Below are positions 10,687 through 59,626 of a DNA stretch of 64,000 nucleotides, one piece after another. Source of the stretch: an uncultured Syntrophomonadaceae bacterium (GTDB lineage: Bacteria; Bacillota; Dethiobacteria; DTU022); the NCBI GenBank assembly GCA_964506505.1, contig CAZDKY010000003.1:44673-108672 (forward strand). Direction: 5' to 3'. The notes beneath the pieces are model-generated. The model had not been told where the DNA came from, searched no databases, and worked only from the letters and a program-made list of their open reading frames with translations. Each line of letters begins with the position of its first letter. Within the stretch, counting starts at the first letter, position 1. The position numbers and the translations under genes are program-made.

Positions 10687-12663
10687 ATGCTGCGTAAAAT
10701 AATTGGCCCACTGGTAATTATGCTGATAGCTATGCTGGCTATCGGCGCAGGGGGTTACTATCTCGAAGAAGGGTTTCAAACAACCGGTGCGGGTAGCTAT
10801 ACCCCGGTTTTTGAATTATCACCGGAAGAAGATGAATCAACAGGACAGGATGAATCGGCAAAAACCTATGAAACACCGGCTTATAAAGACGAAACAGTAT
10901 ACGTGCTTCTCGATCACGACGGATCGGTTCTGGAACAGCAGATTGTCAATCGGCTTTACGGGCAGCACGATCCCGAAGCTCCCCTGGTTGCTGATTACGG
11001 AACTTATCTTTCTGTGGAGAACATGACATCTTCCGCCGAGCCGGTAATAGAGGAAAACCGCCTCCTCTGGAAAAGTGAACTGCTCAAGATCGACGAGCTC
11101 TATTATGAGGGAACCCTCGATAAAGAACTGCCCGTTGATATCAATATCTCCTATTACCTGGATGGTGAACCGGTAGCTCCTTCTTCCCTGGGAGGACAAG
11201 GCGGAAGGCTGGAAATTGTCATTCAGGCAGAAAATAATCTCCTCTATGATGGGACAGTGAGTTATCATGATCATGAAGGCACACTGGTCACAGTGGAAGA
11301 AGAAAATTATGTTCCTCTGCTTGTCCAGGGAACAATGGATGTTGATTTAAATCGCTTTTCAAATATTGACACCGGAGAAGGACTTGATATAGTCATTGGC
11401 CAGAGCGCCAGTATCAATTTCATGATTTTCCCTTACCCTGAAGCTGAAATAAAGATCAGCATGGACGGCGATGACATTGAGCTGGGCAGCATTTCTTTCA
11501 TTGTTACCCCCCAGTTGCCCCCAATGAACGAGATCGATATAGAGGATGAACTCGTCGAGATGCTGGAAGGGTTTTCAATGCTTTCCGGAGGACTGGCTGA
11601 ACTGGAAGGGGGAGCCGATCTTTTACTGCAGGGGATGAGGCGTTTTGAGCAGGAAAGCGATCAAATGACAGGCATGACAGCTGAATGGAGCGCTCTTATT
11701 GACGAATACAGCAAACAAAAATCCACTTATGACAAACTGATTACAGACTTCGCCGCGGGGGATTTGACCGAGGTCGTTTCATCCATGCAGGATCTGCTCG
11801 GTGAAATAGAAAATCTCCCTGATCCGGGGACAATCACTGACGATATTGCCATCGCGGCCGACAGTTCGGCAGAACTAAAGAATCATATTGCCGTTCTCAA
11901 CAACAGCCTGGCCGCTGCTGAAGATACAGATACACGGATCAGGTCGGAAGCGGAACGCCTCGTTGCTGAAAACGAACCAGGGACGGGCTTACATGAACTG
12001 GGAATGCTCATCCTGTCGAGAGAAAAAACTCTCGACACCACTTTTGCAGAACGGCAAATTATTGATCGAAATATCGGTGAACTGGATGATGCCCTGCAAT
12101 CGCTGGAAAGGTTCTGGCAGGAAGATTATCTTCCGGAAGTAGCTTTCCTGGAAGAATTAAGTAGTGTCACCGACAATGAATGGTATGAAGCAGGAAAATA
12201 TCTCGAATTTGTAGCGGTAGAACTGGACAGCTTTGCTGATTACTACAGAGAAATTGACGACGTGATCTTAGAAGCGGAGGGCATGCTGGGGGATATATCC
12301 AGACTGCCCGGAGCATTAAAAGAGTTAACATATGGACAAACCAGGCTCACGGAAGGCCTGAAAGAACTGCGGGAAAGCGGAATCATGGCCATGGAAAAAG
12401 GATTAATTGAAGGAGTTAACGAAGCCAAATACGGCGCAGCCAAACTGGAACTGATGGAAAAGCTGGCTGATGATTATCGATCCTACGCCGACAATGTACA
12501 TAACCGGCACAGTAAGGTCCAGTTTATTATGCAGACTGAGAAAATTACCGCACCTGCGGAAGAGGATCCGGAAGAAGAAAAAGAAGATACTCTACCGGAA
12601 CCGGAGTACTTCTGGGCAATTGAATTCTGGAATAAAATGATCCATCTTTTCGACTTTCAATAA
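10687..12663 (+). CDS. Membrane-anchored extracytoplasmic protein with X-X-X-Leu-X-X-Gly heptad repeats (like the YhgE/Pip N-terminal domain)
   Basis: One N-terminal TM helix, an acidic linker, then a long helical region carrying FSMLSGG-LAELEGG-ADLLLQG and ALKELTYG-QTRLTEG-LKELRESG heptads. There is no C-terminal TM bundle. GGAGGGG ribosome-binding site. The gene is 22 nt downstream of the MMPL stop and 16 nt upstream of the TetR start. Confidence 0.65.
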   Translation: MLRKIIGPLVIMLIAMLAIGAGGYYLEEGFQTTGAGSYTPVFELSPEEDESTGQDESAKTYETPAYKDETVYVLLDHDGSVLEQQIVNRLYGQHDPEAPLVADYGTYLSVENMTSSAEPVIEENRLLWKSELLKIDELYYEGTLDKELPVDINISYYLDGEPVAPSSLGGQGGRLEIVIQAENNLLYDGTVSYHDHEGTLVTVEEENYVPLLVQGTMDVDLNRFSNIDTGEGLDIVIGQSASINFMIFPYPEAEIKISMDGDDIELGSISFIVTPQLPPMNEIDIEDELVEMLEGFSMLSGGLAELEGGADLLLQGMRRFEQESDQMTGMTAEWSALIDEYSKQKSTYDKLITDFAAGDLTEVVSSMQDLLGEIENLPDPGTITDDIAIAADSSAELKNHIAVLNNSLAAAEDTDTRIRSEAERLVAENEPGTGLHELGMLILSREKTLDTTFAERQIIDRNIGELDDALQSLERFWQEDYLPEVAFLEELSSVTDNEWYEAGKYLEFVAVELDSFADYYREIDDVILEAEGMLGDISRLPGALKELTYGQTRLTEGLKELRESGIMAMEKGLIEGVNEAKYGAAKLELMEKLADDYRSYADNVHNRHSKVQFIMQTEKITAPAEEDPEEEKEDTLPEPEYFWAIEFWNKMIHLFDFQ

Positions 12664-15739: not shown

Positions 15740-16981
15740 ATGTTTTGGGCAAAAAACCGGTTATACGCTGCTGTAACTATGGCTTTAATTGTTATGCTGT
15801 CATCCGCGGGATGCAGTTTGCCAGACCTGCCGGAAGGAGAAGCTGCCCCTGTAGAAGAACTCGATGAACGCCTGATTGAATCAAACAATGGATTTGGCTT
15901 CACTCTTTTCAAAAAGCTGCATCAGGAAGATAAGGGACGCAATTTGTTAATTTCACCATCCAGTATCCTGACCGCCCTGGCAATGGCCAGTACAGGCGCG
16001 GAAGGCGAAACACGAACGGCAATGGAAAAGACCATGTTCCTGACAGGAATGTCCAGAGAAGAAATCAACAAGGCTTTTGCCGATCTGCTTACTATCCTGC
16101 AGAATCCTGATCCGGAGGTCGAGCTGGTCGTGGCCAACTCACTCTGGACACGCAAAGGCCTGGAACTTAATGAAACCTTCATCAAGCAAAACCACGATTT
16201 TTATGACGCTGAAATAACGGATCTGGACTTTTCCAACTCGGACGCCGCCGGTGTCATCAACGACTGGGTCAGGGAAAAAACAAATCAGAAGATAGATGGA
16301 ATAGTTGAACCGCCCATAAATCCGGAAACGATCCTCTTTCTGATTAACGCCCTCTATTTCAAGGGCGCATGGGCCGAAGAATTTGATCCGGATCAAACCC
16401 GCGAAATTCCCTTCAAACTACCCGATGGAACAACAAAGGAACATCCGGTAATGTTTAAAAACGGCGAGCTTGAGTACCTGGAAAATGATCTCTTCCAGGC
16501 TGTCCGTCTTCCGTACGGGAAAAATGAACGGATTGCTATGACCCTGTTTCTGCCTGCCGGGGATTTAACTCTGGAACAAATTTTAAGCGAACTGGATAAA
16601 AAAAGCTGGGATAGGTGGAACGAAGCCTTCGACAGCATGGAAGGCGAATTAGGACTGCCTCGGTTCAGCTTTGCCTGTGAACTGTCTTTAAATAAAGTCC
16701 TCTCAGATCTGGGTATGGAAATCGCTTTTGATGAAAATGCCGCCGATTTCAGCGGAATGCGTCCCATCCCGCCGCGCCTGTTTATAAGTAAAGTGAAACA
16801 TAAAACTTACATCGACGTGACCGAGGAAGGCACAGAAGCAGCGGCTGTTACTTCTGTTGAAGTGGAAGTAACAGCCATGCCGGAGCAATTTTCGATGATT
16901 ATTGACCGCCCCTTCTTTTTTACCATCAGTGATGAAATGACCGGGACGATCCTTTTCATGGGAACCGTTTTTGAACCCTAA
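15740..16981 (+). CDS. Serpin-family serine protease inhibitor, predicted lipoprotein
   Basis: Lipoprotein signal peptide ..MLSSAGC. Serpin core motifs NALYFKGAWAEEF, a reactive-centre-loop region (EEGTEAAAVTSVEVEVTAMPEQ), and a C-terminal FFFTISDEMTGTILFMGTVFEP signature. Confidence 0.85.
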   Translation: MFWAKNRLYAAVTMALIVMLSSAGCSLPDLPEGEAAPVEELDERLIESNNGFGFTLFKKLHQEDKGRNLLISPSSILTALAMASTGAEGETRTAMEKTMFLTGMSREEINKAFADLLTILQNPDPEVELVVANSLWTRKGLELNETFIKQNHDFYDAEITDLDFSNSDAAGVINDWVREKTNQKIDGIVEPPINPETILFLINALYFKGAWAEEFDPDQTREIPFKLPDGTTKEHPVMFKNGELEYLENDLFQAVRLPYGKNERIAMTLFLPAGDLTLEQILSELDKKSWDRWNEAFDSMEGELGLPRFSFACELSLNKVLSDLGMEIAFDENAADFSGMRPIPPRLFISKVKHKTYIDVTEEGTEAAAVTSVEVEVTAMPEQFSMIIDRPFFFTISDEMTGTILFMGTVFEP

Positions 16982-18768: not shown

Positions 18769-19884
18769 TTACCTGGCATTTTCAGCCGCTTCAGCAACTG
18801 CGGCCAGATAACTTTCGACTGTAATGGTGACCAGGGTTTCCAGCTCGGGGACATCGGGAACATGCTGGTGTGCTTCATCCCTGGTTTTTACCGGCATACC
18901 GGTGATCTCATCTATTGTCTTGCCAACCATCCATTCCTCAAGCGAGGCAATCTGCTCATACCACTCTTTGCCTATTTCTGAGATATTACCCATACCGTAG
19001 TCATCACCGAGCTGCACTTTAGTTTTCGGCGCTGCCGACTTATCGGAAGTGACAGTACCTTCGGCATCATAGTTGATTCTGATCTGGGCATTGTCAATCT
19101 GGGCTCCGACAACTACACCTTCAGCATCAAAAGCCACTGCAGCCATAACCGTATCGACCTGGGCCAAGGGATTAACCTCAGCATCTTCATCAAGCCCCAT
19201 AGACCTGGCTGTTGATATATTCTGCCCCAGGCCGGCTGTCACTGCGCCCTCAACTTCAATTGCATTGTTGTAAGCATACTCGACAGCGGCAATGTAATCT
19301 TCCACAGTGATGGTAACCAGGGTCTCCAGTTCGGGAACATCGGGGACATTCTGATGAGCTTCATCCCTGGTTTTAACCGGCATATTTTTGATTTCTTCAA
19401 TAGTTTTGCCGATCATCCAGTTTTCAAGTTCATTCATCTGTTCATACCACTCTTTACCTATTTCGGAAATGTTACCCATTCCGTAATCATCGCCCCGTTC
19501 ACGCTTCGTTTCCGCCGGCTGGGAAATATCGGTGGAAACCTGCATTCCTTCGTCAAAAGCAACGCGGGTCTGGGCATTGTCAATGGTCACGCTGACTACT
19601 TTCCCTTCTGCATCAAAGAGGACAGCTGCCATCACAACATCTGCCTGAGCTGTCGGATTGATACCGGCATCAAAATCTGCATCTGTCGATTTGGCAACAG
19701 ATGTCACTACACCAAGCCCCAGTTTCTGAGTACCGTCTGTGCCGGTTTCTTCTTCAGGCTCTTCTTCCGGGGTTTCTTCAGGGGTTTCTTCCCCCGGTGT
19801 TTCTTCGACCGGAGCGTCCCCACAGCCGGCAACCAGGAAAATGGCCAGGAAAATAACCAGCAATAAACCTAATCCCTTTTTCAT
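18769..19884 (-). CDS. Lipoprotein with an acidic Pro/Glu/Thr linker and two tandem roughly 155-aa repeats of an unknown domain
   Basis: Signal peptide MKKGLGLLLVIFLAIFLVAGC, then the linker EETPGEETPEETPEEEPEEE, then two highly similar domains each containing ..VMAAVxFDAEGxVV..IDNAQ..GDDYGMGNISEIGKEWYEQ..GKTIxEI..MPVKTRDEAHQxVPDVPELETLVTITVE. GAGGAGG ribosome-binding site. Confidence 0.75.
   Translation of the reverse strand: MKKGLGLLLVIFLAIFLVAGCGDAPVEETPGEETPEETPEEEPEEETGTDGTQKLGLGVVTSVAKSTDADFDAGINPTAQADVVMAAVLFDAEGKVVSVTIDNAQTRVAFDEGMQVSTDISQPAETKRERGDDYGMGNISEIGKEWYEQMNELENWMIGKTIEEIKNMPVKTRDEAHQNVPDVPELETLVTITVEDYIAAVEYAYNNAIEVEGAVTAGLGQNISTARSMGLDEDAEVNPLAQVDTVMAAVAFDAEGVVVGAQIDNAQIRINYDAEGTVTSDKSAAPKTKVQLGDDYGMGNISEIGKEWYEQIASLEEWMVGKTIDEITGMPVKTRDEAHQHVPDVPELETLVTITVESYLAAVAEAAENAR
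18772..19722. repeat. Internal tandem gene-segment duplication, two units of about 470 bp, inside the lipoprotein gene
   Basis: DNA of about 18772-19239 and 19240-19722 is recognisably similar. By eye I estimate roughly 75-80% identity over long runs, for example ..accagggtttccagctcggggacatcgggaac.. against ..accagggtctccagttcgggaacatcggggac.. The two units encode the two protein repeats. Confidence 0.7.
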
Positions 19885-27250: not shown

Positions 27251-30013
27251 TTGATGAAGCTGCTCTATGTTGAAGATAATGAAGCTGATGTTGAACTGCT
27301 AAAAAGAGCACTGGACAGATCTCCCCGGAAGTTCGACATCGAAGTGGCCGCCAACCTGGCGGAAGCGAGAACCTGTTTGCAGGAAACACAATACGAACTG
27401 GCCCTGATTGACCTCCGCCTTCCCGACGGCAGCGGCATCGAGCTGCTGGCGGAAATCCGGCAAAATGATCTGCCGCTGGCCACAGTTATTTTTACCGGTC
27501 AGGGAGATGAAGAATCGGCCATTGCCGCGCTGAAAGCCGGCGCCAATGATTATATGATAAAAAACGACTACTATTTCAGGCAGGCCGCCAGGGTGCTGGA
27601 AAATGCCCTGGACAGATTTCAATTATTTGCGAAAAGTGGTTTTTCTTCGATAACAGTCCTGTACATCGTATCTGATGCCGCCGATGTCGACCTTACCCGC
27701 AGGCACCTGGCACGTTATGCTCCGCACATCCGCATGCAAGTTGAGCAATCGTCCGATAAAATCTTCGACCTCATTTCGACAGGAAATATTGAAAAGTTAT
27801 GCGATATCTGCTTGATTGATTACCGCCTGCCCGGTTTAAGTGCCCTGGAACTGCTGAAAGCTCTTCAGCAGAACAGAGATATTACGGTCCCGGCAGTTTT
27901 GGTTACCGACCAGGGTGATGAGGAAACCGCCCTGCAGGCCCTGCGGCTGGGAGCTTCTGATTACCTGGTCAAGCAGCCGGGCTATCTTTTTCAGCTGCCG
28001 GCGGCTCTTGAAAATGCTTATAATCAGGCCTGCCTTGCCCGTGAACATGCCAGGCTTTTGAAAAGTGAAGAGAGGTTCCGGGTCGCGATCAGGAATTCCC
28101 AGATCACCGTGGCCCATGTCGACCGCGATCTGCGCTACACCTGGATCCATAGTCCCCACCCTGATTTTGATCCATCTGCCGTTATTGGCAAAAGGGATGA
28201 TGATCTGTCAGATAACGCGGGAACCAGAAAACTGATGGCCTTAAAAAAGAAAGCCATTGAAACCGGAGCAGCACAGAGAGAAGAAATATCCTTTCCGGTA
28301 TCAGATGGAATTCATATCTATGACATTTCCGCCGAACCGTTAAAAGACAAACAGGGTGGCATAATCGGAGCGACCACGTCGGCAATTGACATTACCGAAC
28401 GTGTTGAAATGGAACACGTTCTTAAAAGGCGCCTGGGCGAACTGGAAGCGCTGTACAGCGTCTCCTCCTCCCTGCGATCAGCAGAAACAGTTGAAGAAAT
28501 GCTTTCCATGCTCCTTGATGAAACACTGAAGGCTTTTGAAACCAATGTCGGAGCAATCCTACTCTATGATGATGACAGAAAATTACTGCGTCATCTCGTC
28601 ACCCGGGGGTGGTTCCGGGAGCTGCAGGATATCAGCTTGAAACAGGGTGAAGGAATCACCGGTATGGTTTTTAATACCGGGGAACCTTATGTATCCGAAG
28701 AATTCTCTACCGATCAAAATTTCAAGTACCCAGATCGCGTCCCTGAAGGATGGGGAGGAGCTTCCATTCCCATAAACGTCGACCGACAGATAATCGGCAC
28801 TCTTACCCTGGCCGTGCCGCTGCCGCGAAAAATTACTCCTGATAATCTGAAGCTTCTTTTGTCCCTGGGAGATATGGCCGGAACTGCCGTTCACCGGATC
28901 ACCCTGCATGAAGAAGCGGTAAAAAGACTGCAGAAAATGCAGGCAACAAGGGCAATCGATGCCAGCATTATCGCCAGCCAGGATATGAGTTTAACTTTAG
29001 ATATTCTCCTTGAGCACCTTGTCAGCCAGCTTTCAATAGACGCAGCTGGTGTATTCCTGCTCAATCAAGATCTGAAGGTTCTCGAATTTGCCGCGGGTAA
29101 AGGATTCCGCAGCAAATCGCTTGAAAAATTTTCCCTGGACCTGCAGGAGTCGATGGCCGGAAGGGCGGTACGCAAACGGCAGACTATCCATGTCTATGAT
29201 ATCAATGACCTGCCTAATAAAGAGGGCCTTTTCCAGTGGCTGAAAGGAGACCAGTTTTCCGGTTACATCTGTATTCCATTGTCGGTCAAGGGGGAGGTAA
29301 AAGGGGTTTTGGAAATCTTTGGAAAACGGCCTTTCCGGAAGGAATCCGACTGGCTCGATTTCCTGGAAAGCCTGGCCCTGCAGGCAGCCATCACTATCAA
29401 CAACAACCAGCTTTTTGAAGATATCCAGAGGGCTAATCTGGAACTGACCCTTGCTTACGACGCCACCCTTGAGGGATGGTCCAGAGCTCTGGAATTGCGT
29501 GATCACGAAACGGACAATCACAGCAGAAGGGTAACTGATATGACCATGAAAATTGCAGAAGCTGCCGGTGTTTCCGCCTCTGAAAGAGTACACATCCGCC
29601 GCGGAGCGCTGCTCCACGACATCGGCAAAGTGGGCGTTCCCGATTCCATTCTTCATAAACCGGACAAACTTAACGCCGAAGAATGGGCCATGATGAAAAA
29701 ACATCCCGTCTTTGCCTACCAGCTTCTATCACCGATCGAATATCTGAGGCCCGCTCTCGATATTCCTTACTGCCACCATGAAAAATGGGACGGCAGCGGT
29801 TACCCACGGGGTCTCAGGGATTCGGAGATTCCCCTGGCAGCCAGGATTTTTGCCGTGGCCGATGTATTCGATGCCCTGACCAGCGAGCGCCCCTATCGGC
29901 CGGCCTGGGACAGAAAGGAAGCCCTGAAATGTATCCGCGAGGAAAGCGGTAAGCATTTCGACCCCAGGATAGTTGAAATATTCTTCAGCCTGGTTGAGAA
30001 AGGAGAAGTCTAA
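27251..30013 (+). CDS. Multidomain response regulator: REC, REC-like, PAS, GAF, GAF, HD-GYP c-di-GMP phosphodiesterase
   Basis: The N-terminal receiver has LIDLRLPDGSG. A second receiver-like domain has ..CLIDYRLPGLSALELL... PAS and GAF regions follow. The C-terminal HD-GYP domain carries the LLHDIGKVGVPDSILHK and HHEKWDGSGYPRGL motifs. AAGGAGA ribosome-binding site. Confidence 0.85.
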   Translation: MMKLLYVEDNEADVELLKRALDRSPRKFDIEVAANLAEARTCLQETQYELALIDLRLPDGSGIELLAEIRQNDLPLATVIFTGQGDEESAIAALKAGANDYMIKNDYYFRQAARVLENALDRFQLFAKSGFSSITVLYIVSDAADVDLTRRHLARYAPHIRMQVEQSSDKIFDLISTGNIEKLCDICLIDYRLPGLSALELLKALQQNRDITVPAVLVTDQGDEETALQALRLGASDYLVKQPGYLFQLPAALENAYNQACLAREHARLLKSEERFRVAIRNSQITVAHVDRDLRYTWIHSPHPDFDPSAVIGKRDDDLSDNAGTRKLMALKKKAIETGAAQREEISFPVSDGIHIYDISAEPLKDKQGGIIGATTSAIDITERVEMEHVLKRRLGELEALYSVSSSLRSAETVEEMLSMLLDETLKAFETNVGAILLYDDDRKLLRHLVTRGWFRELQDISLKQGEGITGMVFNTGEPYVSEEFSTDQNFKYPDRVPEGWGGASIPINVDRQIIGTLTLAVPLPRKITPDNLKLLLSLGDMAGTAVHRITLHEEAVKRLQKMQATRAIDASIIASQDMSLTLDILLEHLVSQLSIDAAGVFLLNQDLKVLEFAAGKGFRSKSLEKFSLDLQESMAGRAVRKRQTIHVYDINDLPNKEGLFQWLKGDQFSGYICIPLSVKGEVKGVLEIFGKRPFRKESDWLDFLESLALQAAITINNNQLFEDIQRANLELTLAYDATLEGWSRALELRDHETDNHSRRVTDMTMKIAEAAGVSASERVHIRRGALLHDIGKVGVPDSILHKPDKLNAEEWAMMKKHPVFAYQLLSPIEYLRPALDIPYCHHEKWDGSGYPRGLRDSEIPLAARIFAVADVFDALTSERPYRPAWDRKEALKCIREESGKHFDPRIVEIFFSLVEKGEV

Positions 30014-43436: not shown

Positions 43437-43652
43437 TCAGTTAATAAAACGGATCCCTGAAGCCCCAAATAAAATTCCGGCAATCAACAAAAGGCGGAAA
43501 GCCTGCCAGAAATTGATTTCCCTTAGAGCAAAAACCTGGGGCATTGTTATATTCCACAACCACTGCAGGATAACAGACACAAGAAAGAACAGTGCCACCA
43601 CCAGGATCGGCAGCAAAATAAAGTTTGCCAGGGCGAAACCGTACATGAACAC
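43437..43652 (-). CDS. Small hydrophobic protein with two predicted TM helices, function unknown
   Basis: 71-aa ORF between the patatin gene and coaX on the same strand. The call rests on hydrophobicity alone. Confidence 0.35.
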   Translation of the reverse strand: MFMYGFALANFILLPILVVALFFLVSVILQWLWNITMPQVFALREINFWQAFRLLLIAGILFGASGIRFIN

Positions 43653-43678
43653 ACCTCCTTTGCAGAATTCTTCATTTT

Positions 43679-44469
43679 TTATTTTGTAGCGTTTAACCTG
43701 GTGATTATCCGCAATCCTTCCAGGGTAAGAAGAGGATTGACCTCCCGGATTGTTTCCGATTCACGGGCAATTAAGTTGGCAAAACCACCGGTAGCTATTA
43801 CCTGGGGATCTCCTCCAAGCTCTGCAGCCATCCGATGAACAATTCCGTCGACCTGGCCGACAAACCCGAAGACAATGCCCGACTGCATACTGGAGATGGT
43901 GTCTTTGCCGATAACTCGCTGGGGCCTTACTATTTCCACCCTCGGCAATTTGGCCGCTCTTTCAAAAAGGGCTTCCATAGATATTCCTATGCCGGGAGCG
44001 ATAGCCCCGCCGAGGTAATCACCCTCACCCGAAATGGCACAAAAGGTGGTTGCAGTTCCAAAATCGACTATAATCATCGGCCCACCGTAAAGTTCAATTG
44101 CCGCAACGGCATTGACGATACGATCGGCACCCACTTCACGTGGATTATCTGTTACAATATTTAAGCCGGTCTTTATTCCCGGCCCAATAATAAGGGGATC
44201 GACATTGAAATATTTTGTAGACATACGGCCAAGGGAATACATCAATGGAGGAACAACAGAGGAAATTGCGATAATATTTATTTCCTTTAAGGTTATATGG
44301 CTGTTGTGAAGTAAATTTTTAACCACCATACCCAGTTCATCTTCAGTACTCGATTTACGGGTAGCCAACCGCCAGTAAACAATGATTTTATCTTCGCGGT
44401 ATACCCCGAGCATAATATGGGTGTTGCCAACATCAACGGCCAGTAACAAGTTGCATTCCTCCCACTGAT
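43679..44469 (-). CDS. coaX: Type III pantothenate kinase
   Basis: MLLAVDVGNTH.. at the N-terminus with the ..GTATT.. ATPase core. I placed the start at the TTG at 44469, which has a GGGAGGA ribosome-binding site, rather than the ORF-track start at 44488. Confidence 0.85.
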
Positions 44470-44647
44470 AGATAAGCCTGATAAGCAAGTATCAGGTAAA
44501 TAACACTATAGCAGATTACGTTATTTTTGCAAAGAACCACTCTACAGCTCAATGGTAGAAGCTTAATAGTCTTGGAGGAATCCGGATCATCCCGTCGAAG
44601 TACAGAAGGGCACTTTGACAGCATGATTCGCACAAGGAGGAGCAGTC

Positions 44648-45958
44648 TTGTTAAAGAAAATATCGGGTAAAAACTACTTCGTCGCCCTTGTCCTCTTGAT
44701 AATTGTCGCCGTGCTGCTTGTCATTACGGCTTTTACAATAACAGCATTCATCCCGGATGCTCTGGGGCACAAACCTTATCAATATGAAATCAATTCCGTC
44801 TGTCAAACAGAACCATGGTCCATTGAAACAGAAAATCTGACGGTAATCCTGCCATCCGGTGGGACACTGGTCAACCTGAACGAAACTGATCATGACAAAA
44901 GCTTGCTTCTTCTGGGCAATGGCATTTACCGTCAGAACGGAATCAAGCAGGACGATGAAACAATCGGCGGCTTGTTCATGGTAATCAGCCACGATTTTTT
45001 TGATCAGATCAGGGGAAATAACATTTTTACACCGGTAACCGATGAATCTGAACTGGAAACGGTTTATCGGACCGTTGAAAAACAGATGGGGATACCGATA
45101 ATATGGCAGGATACCATACCGATTATTTTTCACCCCCGTGATAGCCTGGTTTATTATTATTTTATTTCGCCGACCGGAGAACCGCAGCTACCTCCCCAGG
45201 TAAACACTTCCTGGCCCAACATTGCCGGTTCTTTCATGATTTACAGCATCTTTGTAGCTATCTCACTGGTGATAATGACAATATTTTCTCTGGATCATCA
45301 TTATACTCGATACTGGCAAAAAATAAGGGAGACAAGGCCCGGATTTCTCAGCATGCTCATGATACCGCTGCTGGCTGTACTGATAACAGCAAGCGAAGTC
45401 ATAATTAAAATAAACGGATTTCTTGACTATTATACTTTTTTCGGCTATGCTGCAGCTGTTATTACCCTATTTGTTCTTTGGAAATTTAACAAAATTTACT
45501 ACCTTGATTTCGGTTTGCGCCGCGAAAGAGCAGGCCGTGGATATTTCCTGGCTTTGATTGCTGCCGTCCTGGTAATCGGGGCCACCAGGGGACTCCCCGG
45601 CGGCATAAATTTTGCCGGCCTGAAAACTGTGGTAGATTTTGTGCTTATTTTTCTGTTGATCGGGTTGCCGCGGGAAATGTTCTGGAGAGGTTTCATTCAG
45701 ACCTTTTTATGCCGGCGATATGGGCCTAATATCAGCTTAATATTAACTGTTTTACTGGTAGCTGCTGCTCGTCTGGCTATCATTATAATTACCGAGCCGT
45801 GGATGATTGATTATCCTTATACATATGTGGAGGTGGCGGTTCTTGTCCCCGGTGCTGCGCTGGTTCTCGGATTCCTTTACCAGCGAACTGAAAATTCACT
45901 TGCCGGTGCCTTCCTGCACAGTATTATTATTTTTTTGCCGGAATATATTTTTTATTAG
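44648..45958 (+). CDS. Membrane protein with a C-terminal CPBP (CAAX/Abi) intramembrane protease domain
   Basis: The C-terminal TM bundle carries EMFWRGF (EExxxR-like), a FLYQRTE region and ..AFLHS.. (HxxxN/D-like). TTG start with an AAGGAGGA ribosome-binding site. Confidence 0.65.
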   Translation: MLKKISGKNYFVALVLLIIVAVLLVITAFTITAFIPDALGHKPYQYEINSVCQTEPWSIETENLTVILPSGGTLVNLNETDHDKSLLLLGNGIYRQNGIKQDDETIGGLFMVISHDFFDQIRGNNIFTPVTDESELETVYRTVEKQMGIPIIWQDTIPIIFHPRDSLVYYYFISPTGEPQLPPQVNTSWPNIAGSFMIYSIFVAISLVIMTIFSLDHHYTRYWQKIRETRPGFLSMLMIPLLAVLITASEVIIKINGFLDYYTFFGYAAAVITLFVLWKFNKIYYLDFGLRRERAGRGYFLALIAAVLVIGATRGLPGGINFAGLKTVVDFVLIFLLIGLPREMFWRGFIQTFLCRRYGPNISLILTVLLVAAARLAIIIITEPWMIDYPYTYVEVAVLVPGAALVLGFLYQRTENSLAGAFLHSIIIFLPEYIFY

Positions 45959-45976
45959 GAGAAAGGCGGTATACTC

Positions 45977-46543
45977 GTGGATAAAGTAAAAATTGTCAGG
46001 GCAGTAGAAATGATCCTGGAAGCGGTCGGTGAAGATTTAAACAGGGAAGGCCTGGTGGGTACACCAAAACGCATAGCCAATATGTACGAAGAATTGTTCA
46101 GAGGCCTGGAAGAAGATCCAAGGAAACATTTAAAAACATGTTTTGTAGAAGACGGTCATGATGAAATCGTCCTGGTTAAGGACATATCCTTTTATTCCAT
46201 GTGTGAACATCATCTGCTCCCATTCTATGGGAAGGCTCACGTTGCCTATCTTCCTTCCGGGGGAAGGATCGTAGGATTAAGCAAATTAGTCAGGGTTATC
46301 GAAACCGTATCAAGACGCCCCCAGCTGCAGGAACGTTTAACCAGCAATGTAGCCGACATAATCACTGAAGAACTTAAGCCTAAAGGGGTCGTTGTGGTTG
46401 TCGAAGCGGAACATCTCTGCATGAGCATCCGCGGTGTAAGCAAACCTGGTGCTTTTACGGTCACTTCTGCCGTCAGGGGGTTGTTCAGACGCAATCCCAG
46501 CTCCAGAGGTGAAGTGTTCAGCCTGATACAGGGAAAAAGATAA
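45977..46543 (+). CDS. folE: GTP cyclohydrolase I
   Basis: ..[16 protein letters not shown].. and ..[18 protein letters not shown]. Confidence 0.9.
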
Positions 46544-46562
46544 CGATAAACGAGAACGGATA

Positions 46563-47072
46563 ATGAAAAATAAAATGATGGAGCGAGTAAATAGAATACT
46601 TACCAGCCGGGAATATCGTGATCATTTAGAGCGCAATGCCCTGCGTGAAGAATCACGCCCCTTCTGCCGGCATCACTTTGAACATCTTCTTACAGTAGCC
46701 AGGCTAACCTACCTGCTGCTGCTCGAGGAAGGGTGCCCTTTTATTAACCGGGAAACGGCTTATGCAGCAGGCCTGTTGCATGATATCGGCCGCTGGCAAG
46801 AATATGATTATGGAACTGATCATGCTCTTGCCAGCGCCGAGATGGCCAAAACAATCCTTAGAAAAGTAGGCTTCTCCAATTCAGAAACGGAACTGATAAC
46901 CCGGGCTATTGCTCAGCATCGTCTGAAAGACCATGAACAACCACACCAGTCTTCATTAAGCAGGGCTCTGGCAAAAGCGGATCAATATTCCCGCCTCTGT
47001 TTCAACTGCCAGGTCCGTAGCGAATGCCTGGCCCTCGACAGACAACCCCATAAAGAGGAGCTGATATATTGA
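46563..47072 (+). CDS. HD-domain phosphohydrolase embedded in the fol operon
   Basis: HxxxLL..LLHDIGR HD signature. Its stop codon overlaps the folP start (TTGA). Confidence 0.7.
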   Translation: MKNKMMERVNRILTSREYRDHLERNALREESRPFCRHHFEHLLTVARLTYLLLLEEGCPFINRETAYAAGLLHDIGRWQEYDYGTDHALASAEMAKTILRKVGFSNSETELITRAIAQHRLKDHEQPHQSSLSRALAKADQYSRLCFNCQVRSECLALDRQPHKEELIY

Positions 47073-48295
47073 AAGAATTAAATTCTTCAGCCCAGATCCT
47101 CATCCTGGAATCGGGAAAAACTGTTGCAGATCTCACAGCGATGGGTTTTTCTCCAGAGGTAAGCGAACAATTTACCAGGCAGGTTGATTCCATTTTTATC
47201 AGATTAAAAAATGTGCCACAGGAACTCATCCCGGTGCTCAAAAATGTGCCGGCTTTGGAAAATAACAATGTGATGTTCGGTAAAGTTGACGACCGGAAAC
47301 AAATATTTGAAGCGGTTATTGCCGGTACCAAAAATGAACTGAATGATCTTTGTGAACAGCTGGGACACGGCGGAGAAAAATCAGCGAAGCTGGCTGCCTT
47401 GCTCCACAGCACTCTGGCGAAAAGCAGCAGAAAGAACCGTTTACCTTTTTCCCTCGGGCACCACCGCCTCCCACTCGGTCAAAGAACATTAATCATGGGT
47501 ATTCTTAATGTGACTCCCGATTCATTTTCCGACGGCGGCCGTTTTGATCAACTTGATGAAGCTCTCACCCAGGCGTTCCGTATGGCCGAAGAAGGCGCTG
47601 ATATTATTGATATCGGGGGAGAATCGACCCGACCGGGCCATCTGAAAGTTAACGCCGCTACCGGAATAAGTCAGGTTATGCCGGTAAATGCTGAAGTCGA
47701 ACTGAACCGGGTTATGCCGGTTATCAAAGCTTTAAAAAAAGATCAATCTTTCAAACTGCCACTTTCAATAGATACTTACAAAGCAAAAGTAGCGGAAAAA
47801 GCTCTAGCCTCCGGAGTTGAAATGTTAAATGATGTCTGGGGTTTAAAAGCTGACCCGCACCTTGGAACAGTTGCCGCGCATTTCGATGTGCCGATCTGCC
47901 TGATGCATAACCGAAATAGCACAGATTATGACGATCTTATTGCCGATATTATTGCTGAAATCGAGGAATCAATTGCCCTGGCTCAAAATGCCGGTATCAA
48001 AGATGAAAAAATCATTATTGATCCCGGGATCGGCTTTGGCAAAAATCTGCAGCAAAATCTGGATGTGATGCTGCATTTGAATACATTCTGCCGCCTCGGG
48101 TATCCCCTGCTCCTTGGCACTTCCCGGAAATCAATTATCGGAAAAACGCTGGATCTTCCCACTGATGAACGTATGGAAGGCACAGCAGCAACCGTAGCCT
48201 ACGGAATTGCTGCAGGAGCTGATATTGTCAGGGTTCACGACGTTTTATCGATGAAAAGGGTGACAGTGATGACTGACGCCATGATTCGGAGGTGA
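47069..48295 (+). CDS. folP: Dihydropteroate synthase with an N-terminal extension of about 130 aa
   Basis: The DHPS core begins at ..IMGILNVTPDSFSDGG.. and includes ..DIGGESTRPG. It is preceded in frame by a 130-aa domain of unknown function. TTG start with an AGAGGAG ribosome-binding site. Confidence 0.8.
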   Translation: MKELNSSAQILILESGKTVADLTAMGFSPEVSEQFTRQVDSIFIRLKNVPQELIPVLKNVPALENNNVMFGKVDDRKQIFEAVIAGTKNELNDLCEQLGHGGEKSAKLAALLHSTLAKSSRKNRLPFSLGHHRLPLGQRTLIMGILNVTPDSFSDGGRFDQLDEALTQAFRMAEEGADIIDIGGESTRPGHLKVNAATGISQVMPVNAEVELNRVMPVIKALKKDQSFKLPLSIDTYKAKVAEKALASGVEMLNDVWGLKADPHLGTVAAHFDVPICLMHNRNSTDYDDLIADIIAEIEESIALAQNAGIKDEKIIIDPGIGFGKNLQQNLDVMLHLNTFCRLGYPLLLGTSRKSIIGKTLDLPTDERMEGTAATVAYGIAAGADIVRVHDVLSMKRVTVMTDAMIRR

Positions 48296-48302
48296 TAACC
48301 AC

Positions 48303-48662
48303 TTGGACCGTATAATTATTGATGGTTTTACCTGCTATGCCTACCATGGAGTGCTTCCTGAAGAAAACAGCCTCGGGCAGGAATTTCAGGTCAGCATAGA
48401 GCTGGGCGTCGATCTGGCCGGTCACAACGATGACCAGATCGATAAAGTTCCCGATTACCGTAAAGCGGTAATGGCTATCGAGGAAGTGATGTACGGCGAC
48501 TCCTGCAGGCTTCTCGAAACGCTTGCCTGCCGGATAGCCGACAAACTGCTTTCTCTTCCCGGAGTACTGGAAACAACTGTTGAAGTTCGCAAACCCAGTC
48601 CTCCCTTGCCCGGTGTGCAAGGAGGAGTAGGAGTGATGGTCAATCGCCACCGGCAATTATAA
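48303..48662 (+). CDS. folB: Dihydroneopterin aldolase
   Basis: ..GFTCYAYHGVLPEENSLGQEFQVSIEL.. TTG start. The GGAGGTGA ribosome-binding site overlaps the folP stop codon. Confidence 0.85.
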   Translation: MDRIIIDGFTCYAYHGVLPEENSLGQEFQVSIELGVDLAGHNDDQIDKVPDYRKAVMAIEEVMYGDSCRLLETLACRIADKLLSLPGVLETTVEVRKPSPPLPGVQGGVGVMVNRHRQL

Positions 48663-48724
48663 ATAAGGAGATAAGGCGGAACTACCAGACAGTCAAACCT
48701 TGCTAAATCCGCCCTGATAATTTA

Positions 48725-49249
48725 ATGATCACCGAAAAACATGCTTATATCGGGCTCGGTTCAAACCTCGGCACTCGTTTGAGCAATTTGCGACAATCGT
48801 TGACTTTACTTTCCCAGGTTCCCGCAATTAAAATTAAGGAAGTTTCGCCGGTTTATGAGACTGAGCCGGTGGGAGGTCCTGCCCAGGGATATTATCTCAA
48901 TGCCTGTGCCTCCCTCCTGACCACCCTCCCCCCGGAAACCCTGATGCGGGCAATGCTTGATGTGGAAAACCGAATCGGCAGAATTAGAATAGAAAGATGG
49001 GGACCCAGGACAATCGATCTGGATCTGCTGGTTTATGAAGATGAGGTAATAAACACTCCTCTGCTTAACCTACCCCATCCACGCCTGTGTGAAAGATGTT
49101 TTGTTCTTATTCCCCTGGCAGATATTGCCCCCAATCTGACTATCCCGGGCCTGGGCATAAACATCCGCAAACTTTTATCAGAATGCCTGTCTGACGAGGA
49201 TGTCCGCTATTACCTTCCTGCAAACTGGTTTATTAATAATTCAGTTTAA
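48725..49249 (+). CDS. folK: 2-amino-4-hydroxy-6-hydroxymethyldihydropteridine diphosphokinase (HPPK)
   Basis: ..AYIGLGSNLG.. and ..ETEPVGGP..RWGPRTIDLDLL. Confidence 0.9.
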   Translation: MITEKHAYIGLGSNLGTRLSNLRQSLTLLSQVPAIKIKEVSPVYETEPVGGPAQGYYLNACASLLTTLPPETLMRAMLDVENRIGRIRIERWGPRTIDLDLLVYEDEVINTPLLNLPHPRLCERCFVLIPLADIAPNLTIPGLGINIRKLLSECLSDEDVRYYLPANWFINNSV

Positions 49250-49404
49250 AATCCTCTCTCCACTAATTGTTAGCCAAACCGGAATTTTGCCCAAAAATCT
49301 TTAAGGTTTCATTTCACGGCACAGATAATGCCCCTGAAAACGGTTTTCTCTGCTATTCTCAAAGCCCTTCAGCACAGGATTAACTCCAGCAAATGGCGCA
49401 ATTA

Positions 49405-49436
49405 AAACGGGACACCCTCGCGGGCGTCCCGTCGTA
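49405..49436. terminator. Bidirectional terminator between folK (+) and fhs (-)
   Basis: Stem cgggacaccc / gggcgtcccg. On the minus strand it is followed by GTTTTAATT. Confidence 0.5.
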
Positions 49437-49480
49437 ATTAAGCAATGCTAACTTGATGCAACAGTCAAATAACCTTCTAC

Positions 49481-51244
49481 TTAGAACAGTCCCTGAACCT
49501 TACCGGTCTCCACGTCTACATCAACTTTGCGGTAAGCCGGATTGGCAGCAGTCCCCGGCATCAACGAAATTGCACCGGCAACCGGGACAACGAAATCGGC
49601 TCCTCCGTAGGTAAGGATATCACGAACGAAAAGCTTCCAGTCTTTCGGTACACCTTTCAACATGGGATTGTCGGTTAAACTAAGGTGAGTTTTAACCATG
49701 CAGGTGCCCATTTTCTGGAATTTAGGATCTGCTTCCATTTTCTTCGCTTTTTCAAGGGCTTCGGCAGAGTATTCCACACCGTCTGCACCGTAAACTTCCC
49801 TGGCAATAAGATCAATACGATCCCGGAGCGGGGTATCGAGTTCATAGAGGAATTTAAAATCATTCTTTTCTTCGCATGCTTCAATAACGGCATCGGCGAA
49901 TTCAAGAGCACCCTCGCCTCCGTACTGCCAGTGCTTGGAAAGAGCAACCCGGGCACCAGCTTCTTCAGCCAGACGGCGGACAAGCTTGATTTCGTTATCA
50001 GTATCGGTGTGGAAATGATTGAGGCAAACCACCGGACTGATACCAGATTTTTTAATTGTCTTGATATGGTGAATAAGGTTTTCACAACCTTTTTCCACCC
50101 ACTTGAGATTTTCCTCGTTGTAAGCCGGATCAAGCGGCTGTCCTGGCAACGGCAGTGGAGCACCACCGTGACATTTCAGTGCTCGAATGGTAGCTACGAG
50201 CACTGCACATTGGGGAGTAAGGTTAGACATACGGCACTTCAGGTTCCAGAATTTTTCAAAACCGATATCTGCGGCAAAACCAGATTCGGTAATATGGTAG
50301 TCACTTAATTTTAAACCGATTCGGTCGGCAATGATTGAAGATTGTCCGATAGCAATATTGGCAAAAGGCCCGGCATGCACCAGGACCGGCTGCCCCTCAA
50401 TTGTTTGCAGGAGGTTTGGATTAATAGCATCAACCATCCAGGCAGTCATCGCGCCGGCAACATCCAGATCCTCGGTAGTGACCGGTTTGCCTCTCTTGTC
50501 ATAGGCAACAACAATCCTGCCCATTCTTTCCCGCATATCTTTTAAGTCCTTTGCTACAGCCAGTATGGCCATCACCTCTGAGGAAACAGCAATAGCAAAG
50601 CCTGAGCTCATCATTAAACCGTCTTTTCTACCGCCCAGTCCGATAATAATATTACGGAGTGCCTGAGCACAAAAATCGATAATCCATTTCATTTCCACAT
50701 TGCGTGGATCGATATTTAACCTTTTTACATTGTTTCTTTCCAGGAAAGCATCGGTAGAGTTAAATTCATGCTGCAACCGCGAGGTCACGGCAACCATAGC
50801 CAGGTTGTGGGCATTCATGATCGCATTTATGTCGCCGGTCAAACCGAGTGAGAATGGTGTAAGGGGAATACACTGTGAGAGTCCTCCACCGGCAGCTGAA
50901 CCCTTTACATTCATGGTTGGACCACCGGAAGGCTGGCGGATAGCCGCCATAACTTTTTTCCCACGTTTGCCCAGGCCCTGAGTCAACCCCATAGTCGATG
51001 TTGATTTTCCTTCTCCAAGCGGAGTTGGAGTAATCGCCGTTACGTCAATATACTTTCCGTCAGGTTGATCCTTTAATCTCTCCAGTACTTTTTTGTAATC
51101 AACCTTGGCCACGTAGTGACCGTGAGGAAGTAGTTCCTCTTTGTCGAGGCCCAGTTCCTCAGCTAACTGATAAACATTTTTCATATTTGATTCTGCGGCT
51201 TCAGCTATTTCCCAGTCAGCATGTTTTGTCGGATCCAATGGCAT
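49481..51244 (-). CDS. fhs: Formate--tetrahydrofolate ligase
   Basis: 587-aa protein resembling FTHFS, including ..[16 protein letters not shown]. Confidence 0.9.
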
Positions 51245-58171: not shown

Positions 58172-59626
58172 TTATTTGCCGATTTTCCTTATTTTTTTAG
58201 CCTCTTCCCACCATTCATCCATTTCTTTCAAGGTAAACTCCTTCAGCGGACGGTTCCTTTTTTCTGCCTGATCAGAGATGTATTGAAAGCGTTTCATAAA
58301 TTTTTTTATGGTCTTACCGAGAGCCATTTCAGGGTTCACCTTCAGAAAACGGGCAACGTTAACTATTGAAAAGAGATAATCGCCGATTTCTTCTTCAATC
58401 GCAGCACCGTCTTCATCCCTACAGGCTTCCTGGAGCTCGGAAAGTTCTTCTTCGACTTTATGCATAGGGCCGTCAAGATCAGGCCAATCGAAGCCGAACT
58501 GGGCAGCCTTCTTCTGCAGTTTATATGCTTTCAGTAAGGCTGGAAGGCCGTAATCAACTGAAAGAACTGGACTGGTTTTATCTTCGTGGCGCTCTTTCGA
58601 TTTGATTTTCTCCCAGATGACTTTAACCTGGGCTGGATTATCCGCTTTCTCACGGCCGAAAACATGGGGATGGCGGCGGATCAATTTTTCGGTAATTCCT
58701 TCAATTACATCAAAGATATCGAACCGCTTTTCTTCCCTGGCAATTTCACTGTGAAAAATAACTTGTAAGAGCAGATCGCCCAGTTCTTCTTTAAATGATT
58801 GATCATCCCTTTTTTCAATAGCGGAAACCACTTCATAAGCTTCCTCGATCAGGTACTGACGCAAACTGACGTGGGTCTGCTCTCTATCCCAGGGACAACC
58901 ATCCGGGGCACGCAGCCTGGTCATAACACCAAGCAGATCACCAATTATCTTTTTACCGGAAGGCGGCAAATATATTGTTGAATAATTATCAAAAAGAGGC
59001 TGTCGATCAAGATCATAAAGCGATCCTGTCCAACTTTTTTCAAAAGGCGTGCCCGCCGCCCTAATCACTGTTACCGGATAGTTTTCCGGGTATATTTCCA
59101 TCAATTTCAATTTTACCTGCGAAGCGATGAAATTATTGTATACCTGGGCCAGGATAAGATGATTGGGCGATGGTTCTTTTAAAGAATCGAGAGCCAGGGC
59201 ATCATAGATGTTGAAACCCTCCAGAAGATCGATTTGAAGAGCATTTAAAAGGGGCTCGATAAAACTTATTCCGGATACAAACTGCAGACCGATGCCCAGC
59301 CGCGGGCAAATTTTCCGCAGTTTTTTAACAACCATTTCTCCCACATCAGGATGCCCGGGGACAGCATAACATACAGTCCCATGTCTTTTGGCAGCCTTGA
59401 TCAATTTAAAAGTTATCTTTCTGTAAACGTGAGAAAAATCTTTTTCATTTTCGTAGAGATAATCAAAAGACTGTCCTTTTTTACCAAGCGCCGCATAGCG
59501 CCTGGCAGCAGGATGCCTGAGAGTACGATAATAAACTAAGGAGTCTTTTTTTAACCAGGACAGCGCCTCTTTGGTTACATCCCGTGGAGACCCCGGCCCC
59601 AGCCCTATGATAATTATTCTATCCAT
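58172..59626 (-). CDS. mazG: YabN-type fusion of a tetrapyrrole-methylase-like domain and a MazG nucleoside triphosphate pyrophosphohydrolase
   Basis: The N-terminus ..IIIGLGPG.. resembles the TP-methylase family. The C-terminal MazG repeats carry EExxE motifs (..LIEEAYEVVSAIE.. and ..VEEELSELQEA..). Confidence 0.85.
   Translation of the reverse strand: MDRIIIIGLGPGSPRDVTKEALSWLKKDSLVYYRTLRHPAARRYAALGKKGQSFDYLYENEKDFSHVYRKITFKLIKAAKRHGTVCYAVPGHPDVGEMVVKKLRKICPRLGIGLQFVSGISFIEPLLNALQIDLLEGFNIYDALALDSLKEPSPNHLILAQVYNNFIASQVKLKLMEIYPENYPVTVIRAAGTPFEKSWTGSLYDLDRQPLFDNYSTIYLPPSGKKIIGDLLGVMTRLRAPDGCPWDREQTHVSLRQYLIEEAYEVVSAIEKRDDQSFKEELGDLLLQVIFHSEIAREEKRFDIFDVIEGITEKLIRRHPHVFGREKADNPAQVKVIWEKIKSKERHEDKTSPVLSVDYGLPALLKAYKLQKKAAQFGFDWPDLDGPMHKVEEELSELQEACRDEDGAAIEEEIGDYLFSIVNVARFLKVNPEMALGKTIKKFMKRFQYISDQAEKRNRPLKEFTLKEMDEWWEEAKKIRKIGK

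Follow-up and report, generated by a model that had tools for sequence, protein, structure and literature searches.

A pterin-branch folate operon with a candidate FolQ2-type HD-domain phosphohydrolase and an N-terminally extended dihydropteroate synthase in an uncultured Syntrophomonadaceae bacterium

A 64,000-nucleotide stretch from an uncultured Syntrophomonadaceae bacterium (contig CAZDKY010000003.1 of assembly GCA_964506505.1; hereafter the window) carries a pterin-branch folate operon with the probable order (Rce1-like membrane protein)-folE-HD-folP-folB-folK; folate operons of this ordinary type have been described before. The explanation that we find best overall, and hold with slightly better than even confidence, is that the HD-domain gene of this operon encodes a FolQ2-type phosphohydrolase acting on 7,8-dihydroneopterin triphosphate (DHNTP), and that the N-terminal domain (N-domain) of the neighboring FolP, a dihydropteroate synthase (DHPS), can be likened to the N-terminal domain of Helicobacter pylori FolP. 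A preliminary description of this DNA had listed folE, the HD gene, folP, folB and folK with their coordinates, all of which were confirmed by profile matches and open reading frame (ORF) positions (Table 1), and had put the HD gene forward as a positional candidate for DHNTP dephosphorylation.

The positional argument gained support from the relatives, since in each locus inspected that holds a confident homologue the HD gene is flanked by folE and folP. The order folE-HD-folP-folB(-)folK was found in 8/8 genome loci with such a homologue, including Lachnoclostridium, Candidatus Choladocola, Eubacteriaceae, Lachnospiraceae and Emergencia timonensis at 42–47% identity, and is common to all metagenome and metagenome-assembled genome (MAG) loci examined. 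The synteny with fol genes on which the preliminary description had staked its proposal is thus kept down to 42% identity. The distance from HD to folP ranges across loci from a 4-nt overlap to ~40 nt, and that from folE to HD from a 4-nt overlap to 21 nt; the 4-nt HD/folP overlap was called in four loci (L011, L012, L014 and L037) and is also present in a fifth (L016). Two weak HD matches (L009 and L010), covering residues 67–134 only at 33% identity and not near fol genes, were rejected as orthologues.

A DHNTP-pyrophosphatase role for such a gene is not a new idea. The prediction dates from 2007, 18 years ago, and gene position speaks well for it. In their folate survey, de Crecy-Lagard et al. 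(BMC Genomics 2007, PMC1971073) proposed "FolQ2" proteins of the HDIG family, encoded within folate clusters, as alternatives to FolQ, with Clostridium perfringens CPE1020 (peg1083) as the named example. The SEED table of that paper gives the order folE 1082, folQ2 1083, folP 1084, folBK 1085 for C. perfringens, fhs 2567, folQ2 2566, folP 2565, folB 2564, folK 2563 for Carboxydothermus hydrogenoformans, and fhs 285, folQ2 286, folP 287, folB 288, folK 289 for Desulfitobacterium Y51, and the arrangement tabulated there is that of the window, the adjacent fhs included. By 2019 the SEED label read "FolQ3, putative DHNTP pyrophosphatase." By its match to the HDIG model and its location in a folate cluster adjoining folP, the window HD protein classes as a candidate of the FolQ2 type.

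The predicted active site of the HD protein is intact, judging by the conserved residues. The search returned 219 homologues, mostly of 163–164 residues, and in the alignments (A2 and A4) C31, H33, H37, H69-D70, H83, H115-R116, D136, C142, C145 and C151 are invariant, as are five arginines (numbering from the methionine at 46575). The H..HD..H..H..D pattern, which corresponds to the ligand set of binuclear HD enzymes, and the four cysteines are kept in all 120 homologues among the matches listed, and the CxHxxxH and CxxCx5C motifs that carry the cysteines are also found in the Lachnoclostridium and Emergencia homologues at 40–45% identity. C31 together with C142, C145 and C151 probably holds a structural zinc or an iron-sulfur (Fe-S) cluster; the Cys4 set is a family-specific addition to the HD fold. 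The ratio of nonsynonymous to synonymous substitution rates (dN/dS) of 0.13–0.17 shows the gene to be under selection. With most homologues at 164 residues, translation may in truth begin at 46575 or 46578.

The HD-protein model is an all-α HD fold predicted with high confidence (predicted local distance difference test score, pLDDT, of 93). Its fold neighbors include the uncharacterized HD hydrolase 2pq7 (score 14.6), the nearest among solved structures, yeast Ddi2 cyanamide hydratase (13.0), the HD domain of the glycyl-tRNA synthetase β subunit (12.4), PPX/GppA (11–12), Bacillus subtilis YpgQ (11.0) and YqeK-like proteins (9.7–10.9). The sole significant PDB sequence match is again 2pq7 (hmmsearch, E 6e-11), with an alignment that spans profile positions 31–137 and stops short of the CxxCx5C motif. 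The modeled fold is of the nucleotide- or polyphosphate-directed HD hydrolase type, and does not by itself fix the substrate. A weak match to TIGR00295, an archaeal HD family, was also recorded (E 2e-4, 21 bits); the 164 positions of that profile equal the usual length of the HD family.

In the pathway that we propose, FolE converts GTP to DHNTP, and the HD enzyme, as a metal-dependent phosphohydrolase, would hydrolyze DHNTP, most likely with release of pyrophosphate and possibly with full dephosphorylation to dihydroneopterin. With this step in place, no Nudix FolQ/NudB would be required for FolB, FolK and the DHPS domain of FolP to carry the pathway on to 7,8-dihydropteroate, which, where the N-domain is present, might be reduced on the same polypeptide in a flavin-dependent reaction. 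The absence of a Nudix enzyme, on which the preliminary description had built, holds for the window and not as a claim on the genome: no Nudix box (Gx5Ex7REUxEExGU), strict or relaxed, was found in the six frames of the 64 kb, nor any Nudix Pfam match among the window ORFs scanned. All characterized DHNTP-dephosphorylating enzymes that we found in the literature are Nudix proteins.

The in-frame N-terminal extension of FolP, also reported in the preliminary description, is real. Between 47054, where the extended ORF opens, and the conserved N-domain there is a single start codon, the TTG at 47069; a protein 100% identical to the window FolP (P0121) is called as 408 residues in the JGI data. 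At least 100 residues precede the MGILN core motif in 105 of the 120 nearest FolP clusters, the extension being ~140 residues long in the window FolP and ~135 in most relatives, and identity of the N-domain to the window sequence is 21–33% for most members. An annotation artifact was dropped from consideration, given the sole TTG start overlapping the HD stop, the strong Shine-Dalgarno sequence, the conservation in more than 100 clusters and a dN/dS of 0.23. In several records public gene calls shorten extended FolPs to 266–279 residues (L016 4653–5840; OPL11157.1, NLA46422.1), the N-domain being cut off in these records because the TTG start overlapping the HD stop was missed; it is consequently missing from part of the protein databases. 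In public records the two proteins go by no more specific names than "HD domain-containing protein" and "dihydropteroate synthase." We regard the N-domain as a real, selected and dispensable accessory module.

The preliminary description left the function of the N-domain unassigned, as either regulatory or concerned with channeling, and in doing so overlooked a precedent. One source, with reference to Levin, Mevarech and Palfey (J Bacteriol 2007), assigns flavin-dependent dihydropteroate reductase activity, SEED "DHFR2" (after dihydrofolate reductase, DHFR), to the domain at the N terminus of H. pylori FolP, and a later genome paper applies this assignment to a DHFR-less bacterium. In the SEED table a single gene is entered both as FolP and as Dhfr2 for Clostridium thermocellum, Moorella thermoacetica and C. 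botulinum (PMC1971073), and the SEED role persists in 2019 as "alternative dihydrofolate reductase 2." With this precedent, an N-terminally extended Firmicute FolP is most simply taken as the known bifunctional type. The H. pylori activity is reportedly located, in the Levin papers, in an N-terminal FMN-binding segment of ~100 residues, homologous segments being said to occur in the FolPs of organisms without DHFR. By this analogy the N-domain may be the counterpart of the H. pylori domain, an assignment that we make tentatively and rate at somewhat less than an even chance. No tblastn match to Escherichia coli FolA was obtained in the window or in 38 loci, and no DHFR, ThyA, ThyX, FolC or Pab gene was seen among the window ORFs scanned, which cover only 64 kb of the genome.

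Structure prediction offers a lead, not a finding, on the same module. The AlphaFold2 model of the N-domain (pLDDT 78, predicted template modeling score 0.65; moderately confident) has the element order β-α-α-β-α-β-β-α-α, and the chance that this predicted fold resembles the core of ThyX is roughly even; a fold like that of ThyX would be in keeping with a module that handles flavin and folate. Membership in the ThyX family itself was rejected. The N-domain is half the size of ThyX and shares 5–13% identity with it (PF02511; PDB 2af6, 1o26 and 3ah5; PolB 4p5a), and it lacks the ThyX dUMP-binding arginines listed in PMC3498832. No Pfam Thy1 (PF02511) match was found in the window FolP or the N-domain alignment members, and hhalign of the N-domain profile gave <1% probability against Thermotoga maritima ThyX (sequence checked against PDB 1kq4) and 0.3% against an alignment of 11 ThyX sequences from phage genes. 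Foldseek of the model against the PDB returned nothing below E 0.16 and no ThyX entry.

Other searches with the N-domain were equally sparse. Nothing scored in a word-indexed search of 5.8 billion proteins; phmmer against 1.84 billion representatives gave two repeat-protein matches, each a 35-residue stretch matched five times, which we judged spurious; Pfam gave scattered single matches only on 42 alignment members, and NCBIfam none. The sequence-profile search of the PDB returned engineered proteins only (E 0.03), and tblastn against plasmids found no match.

Several points weigh against the explanation favored here. On the N-domain side, the ThyX motif RHRxxSxxxxSxR is absent from the N-domain, and the six-frame search found none; invariance is confined to G130 and T140, both of them in the linker; and the soda-lake relative L014, with the same neighborhood, has a 274-residue FolP that starts over the HD stop and lacks the N-domain, as do the 270-residue FolPs of the Lachnospiraceae and Emergencia operons, so both the HD step and DHPS activity can do without the N-domain. 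On the HD side, the Cys4 motif is superfluous for simple phosphohydrolysis, our full-text literature search found no biochemical or genetic test of a FolQ2-type HD protein, and the genome outside the window could encode a Nudix DHNTPase.

The rival that survives best is that the N-domain is noncatalytic and unrelated to the H. pylori reductase, serving a structural, oligomerization or regulatory purpose, for instance by docking the HD protein or another pathway enzyme or by sensing a folate or pterin ligand; we give it about one chance in three. It fits the conservation of hydrophobic positions alone (L46, L57 and L98, whereas none of the polar or charged residues is invariant), the faster evolution of the N-domain relative to the DHPS core (dN/dS 0.09–0.15), its absence from a close relative with an identical neighborhood, and the failure of the ThyX motif and profile comparisons described above. 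Every extended FolP checked directly follows an HD gene, as a partner-specific role would have it. Against these stands the H. pylori and SEED precedent.

A second rival, which we consider unlikely, concerns the chemistry of the HD enzyme, which might act as a triphosphohydrolase or stepwise phosphatase and take DHNTP to dihydroneopterin, like dGTPase/SAMHD1 or OxsA on their own substrates; one enzyme would then replace both the Nudix step and the unassigned "non-specific" monophosphatase. The sequence does not separate pyrophosphohydrolase from triphosphohydrolase chemistry. YpgQ, the nearest small HD neighbor, is deposited as an uncharacterized protein; it has reportedly been characterized as a nucleoside triphosphate pyrophosphohydrolase, which counts against this rival. 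A joint reading, that the N-domain is a cut-down ThyX-core flavin dihydropteroate reductase and that a Cys4 (Fe-S or zinc) binuclear HD enzyme takes DHNTP directly to dihydroneopterin, strikes us as less likely again.

We think it improbable that the HD protein acts outside folate synthesis, in nucleotide housekeeping, signaling or RNA metabolism, with its operon position reflecting nothing more than conserved gene order (tilS-hpt-ftsH-coaX...fol). The entire neighborhood is indeed a conserved housekeeping block, and HD domains are functionally diverse, with weak NCBIfam matches of this protein to the HD domains of RNase Y, GlnD and Cas3. However, the folE-HD-folP position is strict where the remaining neighborhood differs, as in the Lachnospiraceae and Emergencia loci; in the SEED table folE lies elsewhere in C. 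hydrogenoformans and Desulfitobacterium, yet the HD gene still adjoins folP; the HD stop overlaps the folP start; and the HD proteins not linked to fol genes (L009 and L010) give the partial matches already noted. An MptB-like cyclic phosphodiesterase was dropped, as the product of a type IA FolE is a triphosphate and not a cyclic phosphate. A FolQ2-type enzyme that hydrolyzes DHNTP within the fol operon remains the reading that we prefer.

The DHPS core of FolP is complete, with the Pterin_bind domain confined to residues 143–390 and the motifs NVTPDSFSDGG, GGESTRPG, DPGIGFGK and RVHD invariant in the alignment. A 12-residue insertion (Table 1) occurs in the window protein and P0122 only, of 32 aligned FolPs, and is lineage-specific; its position is one that we take to be loop 2 of DHPS, near the p-aminobenzoate/sulfonamide site. 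The core scores higher with the NCBIfam Sul4 model (282 bits) than with the E. coli-type model PRK11613 (228 bits), which would place the FolP lineage relatively close to the mobile resistance gene sul4. Sul4 itself, a mobile sulfonamide-resistant DHPS (NF033502), was rejected, the 282.5 bits falling short of the cut-off of 600.

The preliminary description had all five genes translationally coupled, which proved correct for two of the four junctions. The folP TTG start (47069–71) overlaps the HD stop TGA (47070–72), with GAGGAG 8 nt upstream of the start, and GGAGGTGA closes with the folP stop TGA (48293–95), 7 nt ahead of the folB TTG. At folE/HD there is a 19-nt gap without a clear Shine-Dalgarno sequence, and folB and folK are separated by 62 nt. 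Because the TAG stop of the Rce1-like gene (45956–58) falls within AGGAGAAAGG, the ribosome-binding site of folE, the operon probably begins with the Rce1-like gene, upstream of where the preliminary description had begun it. This gene is probably co-transcribed with the fol genes. Its product crosses the membrane several times and carries an Rce1-like/CAAX-protease domain at its C terminus; we found no known link between it and folate. It occupies the same place in most related Bacillota loci inspected, with a divergent coaX upstream, the exceptions being L021 and L022, with short unassigned ORFs or no called gene at this position.

The wider block reads tilS-hpt-ftsH-S58 peptidase-fhs / folK-folB-folP-HD-folE-Rce1-like / coaX-patatin, the usual Firmicute folate neighborhood. 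The hairpin between the convergent folK and fhs genes is a likely terminator judging by its sequence; it is absent from the output of the consensus terminator scan, which gave nothing convincing. An Rfam scan of 43500–49600 found no riboswitch, for tetrahydrofolate or otherwise. A MAG contig, "Bacillota bacterium isolate M55B129," is nearly identical to the window (93–99% amino acid identity per gene), and the related proteins carry Bacillota or Dethiobacteria labels.

Table 1. Features of the folate operon and its surroundings in the window
Feature	Position	Strand	Remarks
Rce1-like (CAAX-protease family) membrane protein, 436 aa	44648–45958	+	PF02517 E 3.7e-8
folE, GTP cyclohydrolase I type IA	45977–46543	+	GTG start; PF01227 252 bits; TIGR00063 239 bits (cut-off 181.6)
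HD/HDIG-domain gene, FolQ2-type candidate	46563–47072	+	PF01966 51.9 bits (cut-off 22), E 1e-13; TIGR00277 34.9 bits (cut-off 27.6)
CxHxxxH motif (C31, H33 and H37, the first HD-fold metal-binding histidine)	46665–46685	+	120/120 among the homologues listed
His-Asp doublet H69 D70 within LLHDIGR	46779–46784	+	Invariant in alignments A2 and A4
C-terminal CxxCx5C motif (C142, C145, C151)	46998–47027	+	120/120 among the homologues listed
HD/folP coupling element	47055–47072	+	GAGGAG Shine-Dalgarno (47055–60), 8-nt spacer, TTGA
folP, N-terminally extended dihydropteroate synthase, 408 aa	47069–48295	+	TTG start; TIGR01496 305.6 bits (cut-off 162.6), residues 142–404
FolP N-domain, ~residues 8–122, α/β	47090–47434	+	Outside all Pfam/NCBIfam families; candidate FolP-N / alt-DHFR2 domain
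Linker with LxLG...LPLGxRTL motif, leading into the DHPS barrel	47435–47491	+	G130 and T140 invariant, L129 and L136 nearly so; pLDDT ~55
12-aa insertion VNAATGISQVMP, FolP residues 194–205	47648–47683	+	Directly after the GGESTRPG motif
folP/folB junction GGAGGTGA	48288–48305	+	Ribosome-binding site enclosing the folP stop, then folB TTG
folB, dihydroneopterin aldolase	48303–48662	+	PF02152 98 bits; TIGR00525 85.9 bits
folK, hydroxymethyldihydropterin pyrophosphokinase	48725–49249	+	PF01288 130 bits; TIGR01498 142 bits
GC-rich hairpin GGGACACCC-TCGC-GGGCGTCCC	49409–49430	unstranded	Between convergent folK and fhs; on the minus strand followed by GTTTTAATT
fhs, formate-tetrahydrofolate ligase	49481–51244	−	PF01268 at the same position in related loci; tblastn identity to L001 99%

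Elsewhere in the window, 9 kb from the fol operon, a tetrapyrrole-methylase-like domain is fused to MazG (YabN-like; 58172–59626, minus strand). MazG is a nucleotide pyrophosphohydrolase domain, and the fusion is thus another conceivable pyrophosphohydrolase; a folate role is unlikely because its location is usual for Firmicutes. A second, unrelated HD protein is a 920-residue response regulator with PAS, GAF and HD_5 domains, probably of the HD-GYP type (27251–30013, plus strand). The window also encodes a full-length bacterial serpin (15740–16981, plus strand; PF00079 E 2e-113), serpins being uncommon in bacteria, and two ORFs without a Pfam match at E 1e-5, one of 658 residues that follows an MMPL transporter gene (10687–12663, plus strand) and one of 371 residues that adjoins an ApbE-family gene (18769–19884, minus strand).

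The DHNTP dephosphorylation step lacks an assigned gene in most bacteria, and the HD family is a sharply defined candidate for it, with ~164 residues, a location always adjoining folP, fixed metal ligands and four cysteines. If full dephosphorylation by the HD enzyme were true, it would fill the pyrophosphatase step and, with it, the monophosphatase step that is still unassigned. Were the N-domain a flavin-dependent dihydropteroate reductase, no DHFR would be needed in these anaerobes for the production of reduced folate, which bears on trimethoprim insensitivity and on the reconstruction of folate pathways from MAGs. A ThyX-like fold, if true, would be the first structural hypothesis for that orphan reductase activity, and a ThyX-core flavin N-domain would form an evolutionary link between both flavin-dependent folate enzymes of DHFR-less bacteria.

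Among the structural neighbors of the HD protein, 2pq7 comes from an uncultured Thermotogales bacterium and the YpgQ structure, 5dqv, from B. subtilis; to our knowledge neither is linked to folate genes. A functional parallel may be drawn with archaeal MptB, which is an HD-family enzyme, and the weak TIGR00295 match is a possible lead in this direction. MptB is an Fe(II)-dependent 7,8-dihydroneopterin 2',3'-cyclic-phosphate phosphodiesterase of methanopterin synthesis (PMC3087415), and the window protein would likewise dephosphorylate a dihydroneopterin phosphate directly after the GTP cyclohydrolase step. The two differ in substrate, which for MptB is the cyclic phosphate made by MptA, whereas FolE yields a triphosphate.

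The step proposed for the HD protein, DHNTP to dihydroneopterin monophosphate and pyrophosphate, is that of Lactococcus lactis FolQ and E. coli NudB, and L. lactis folQ also lies inside a fol operon (PMC1971073). The HD protein has no Nudix box, and its fold and catalytic machinery are unrelated to those of the Nudix enzymes. With FolQ2/FolQ3 of SEED, the window protein shares the HDIG type and the place immediately upstream of folP-folB-folK, either downstream of folE or beside fhs; both are predictions, likened by family and gene order. The Cys4 motif and the binuclear-type histidine set go unmentioned in the parts of PMC1971073 that treat FolQ2, and the invariant Cys4 signature of the family appears to be new here, as does the predicted ThyX-like fold of the FolP extension.

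The FolP extension resembles the bifunctional DHPS/dihydropteroate reductase of H. pylori in architecture, both having a ~100–130-residue N-terminal extension fused in frame to a complete DHPS. The 2007 SEED table has no genome with both FolQ2 and DHFR2. In the window lineage the gene to which the HD gene is coupled encodes a FolP with an N-terminal extension, and this combination of a FolQ2-type gene with an extended FolP likewise appears to be new.

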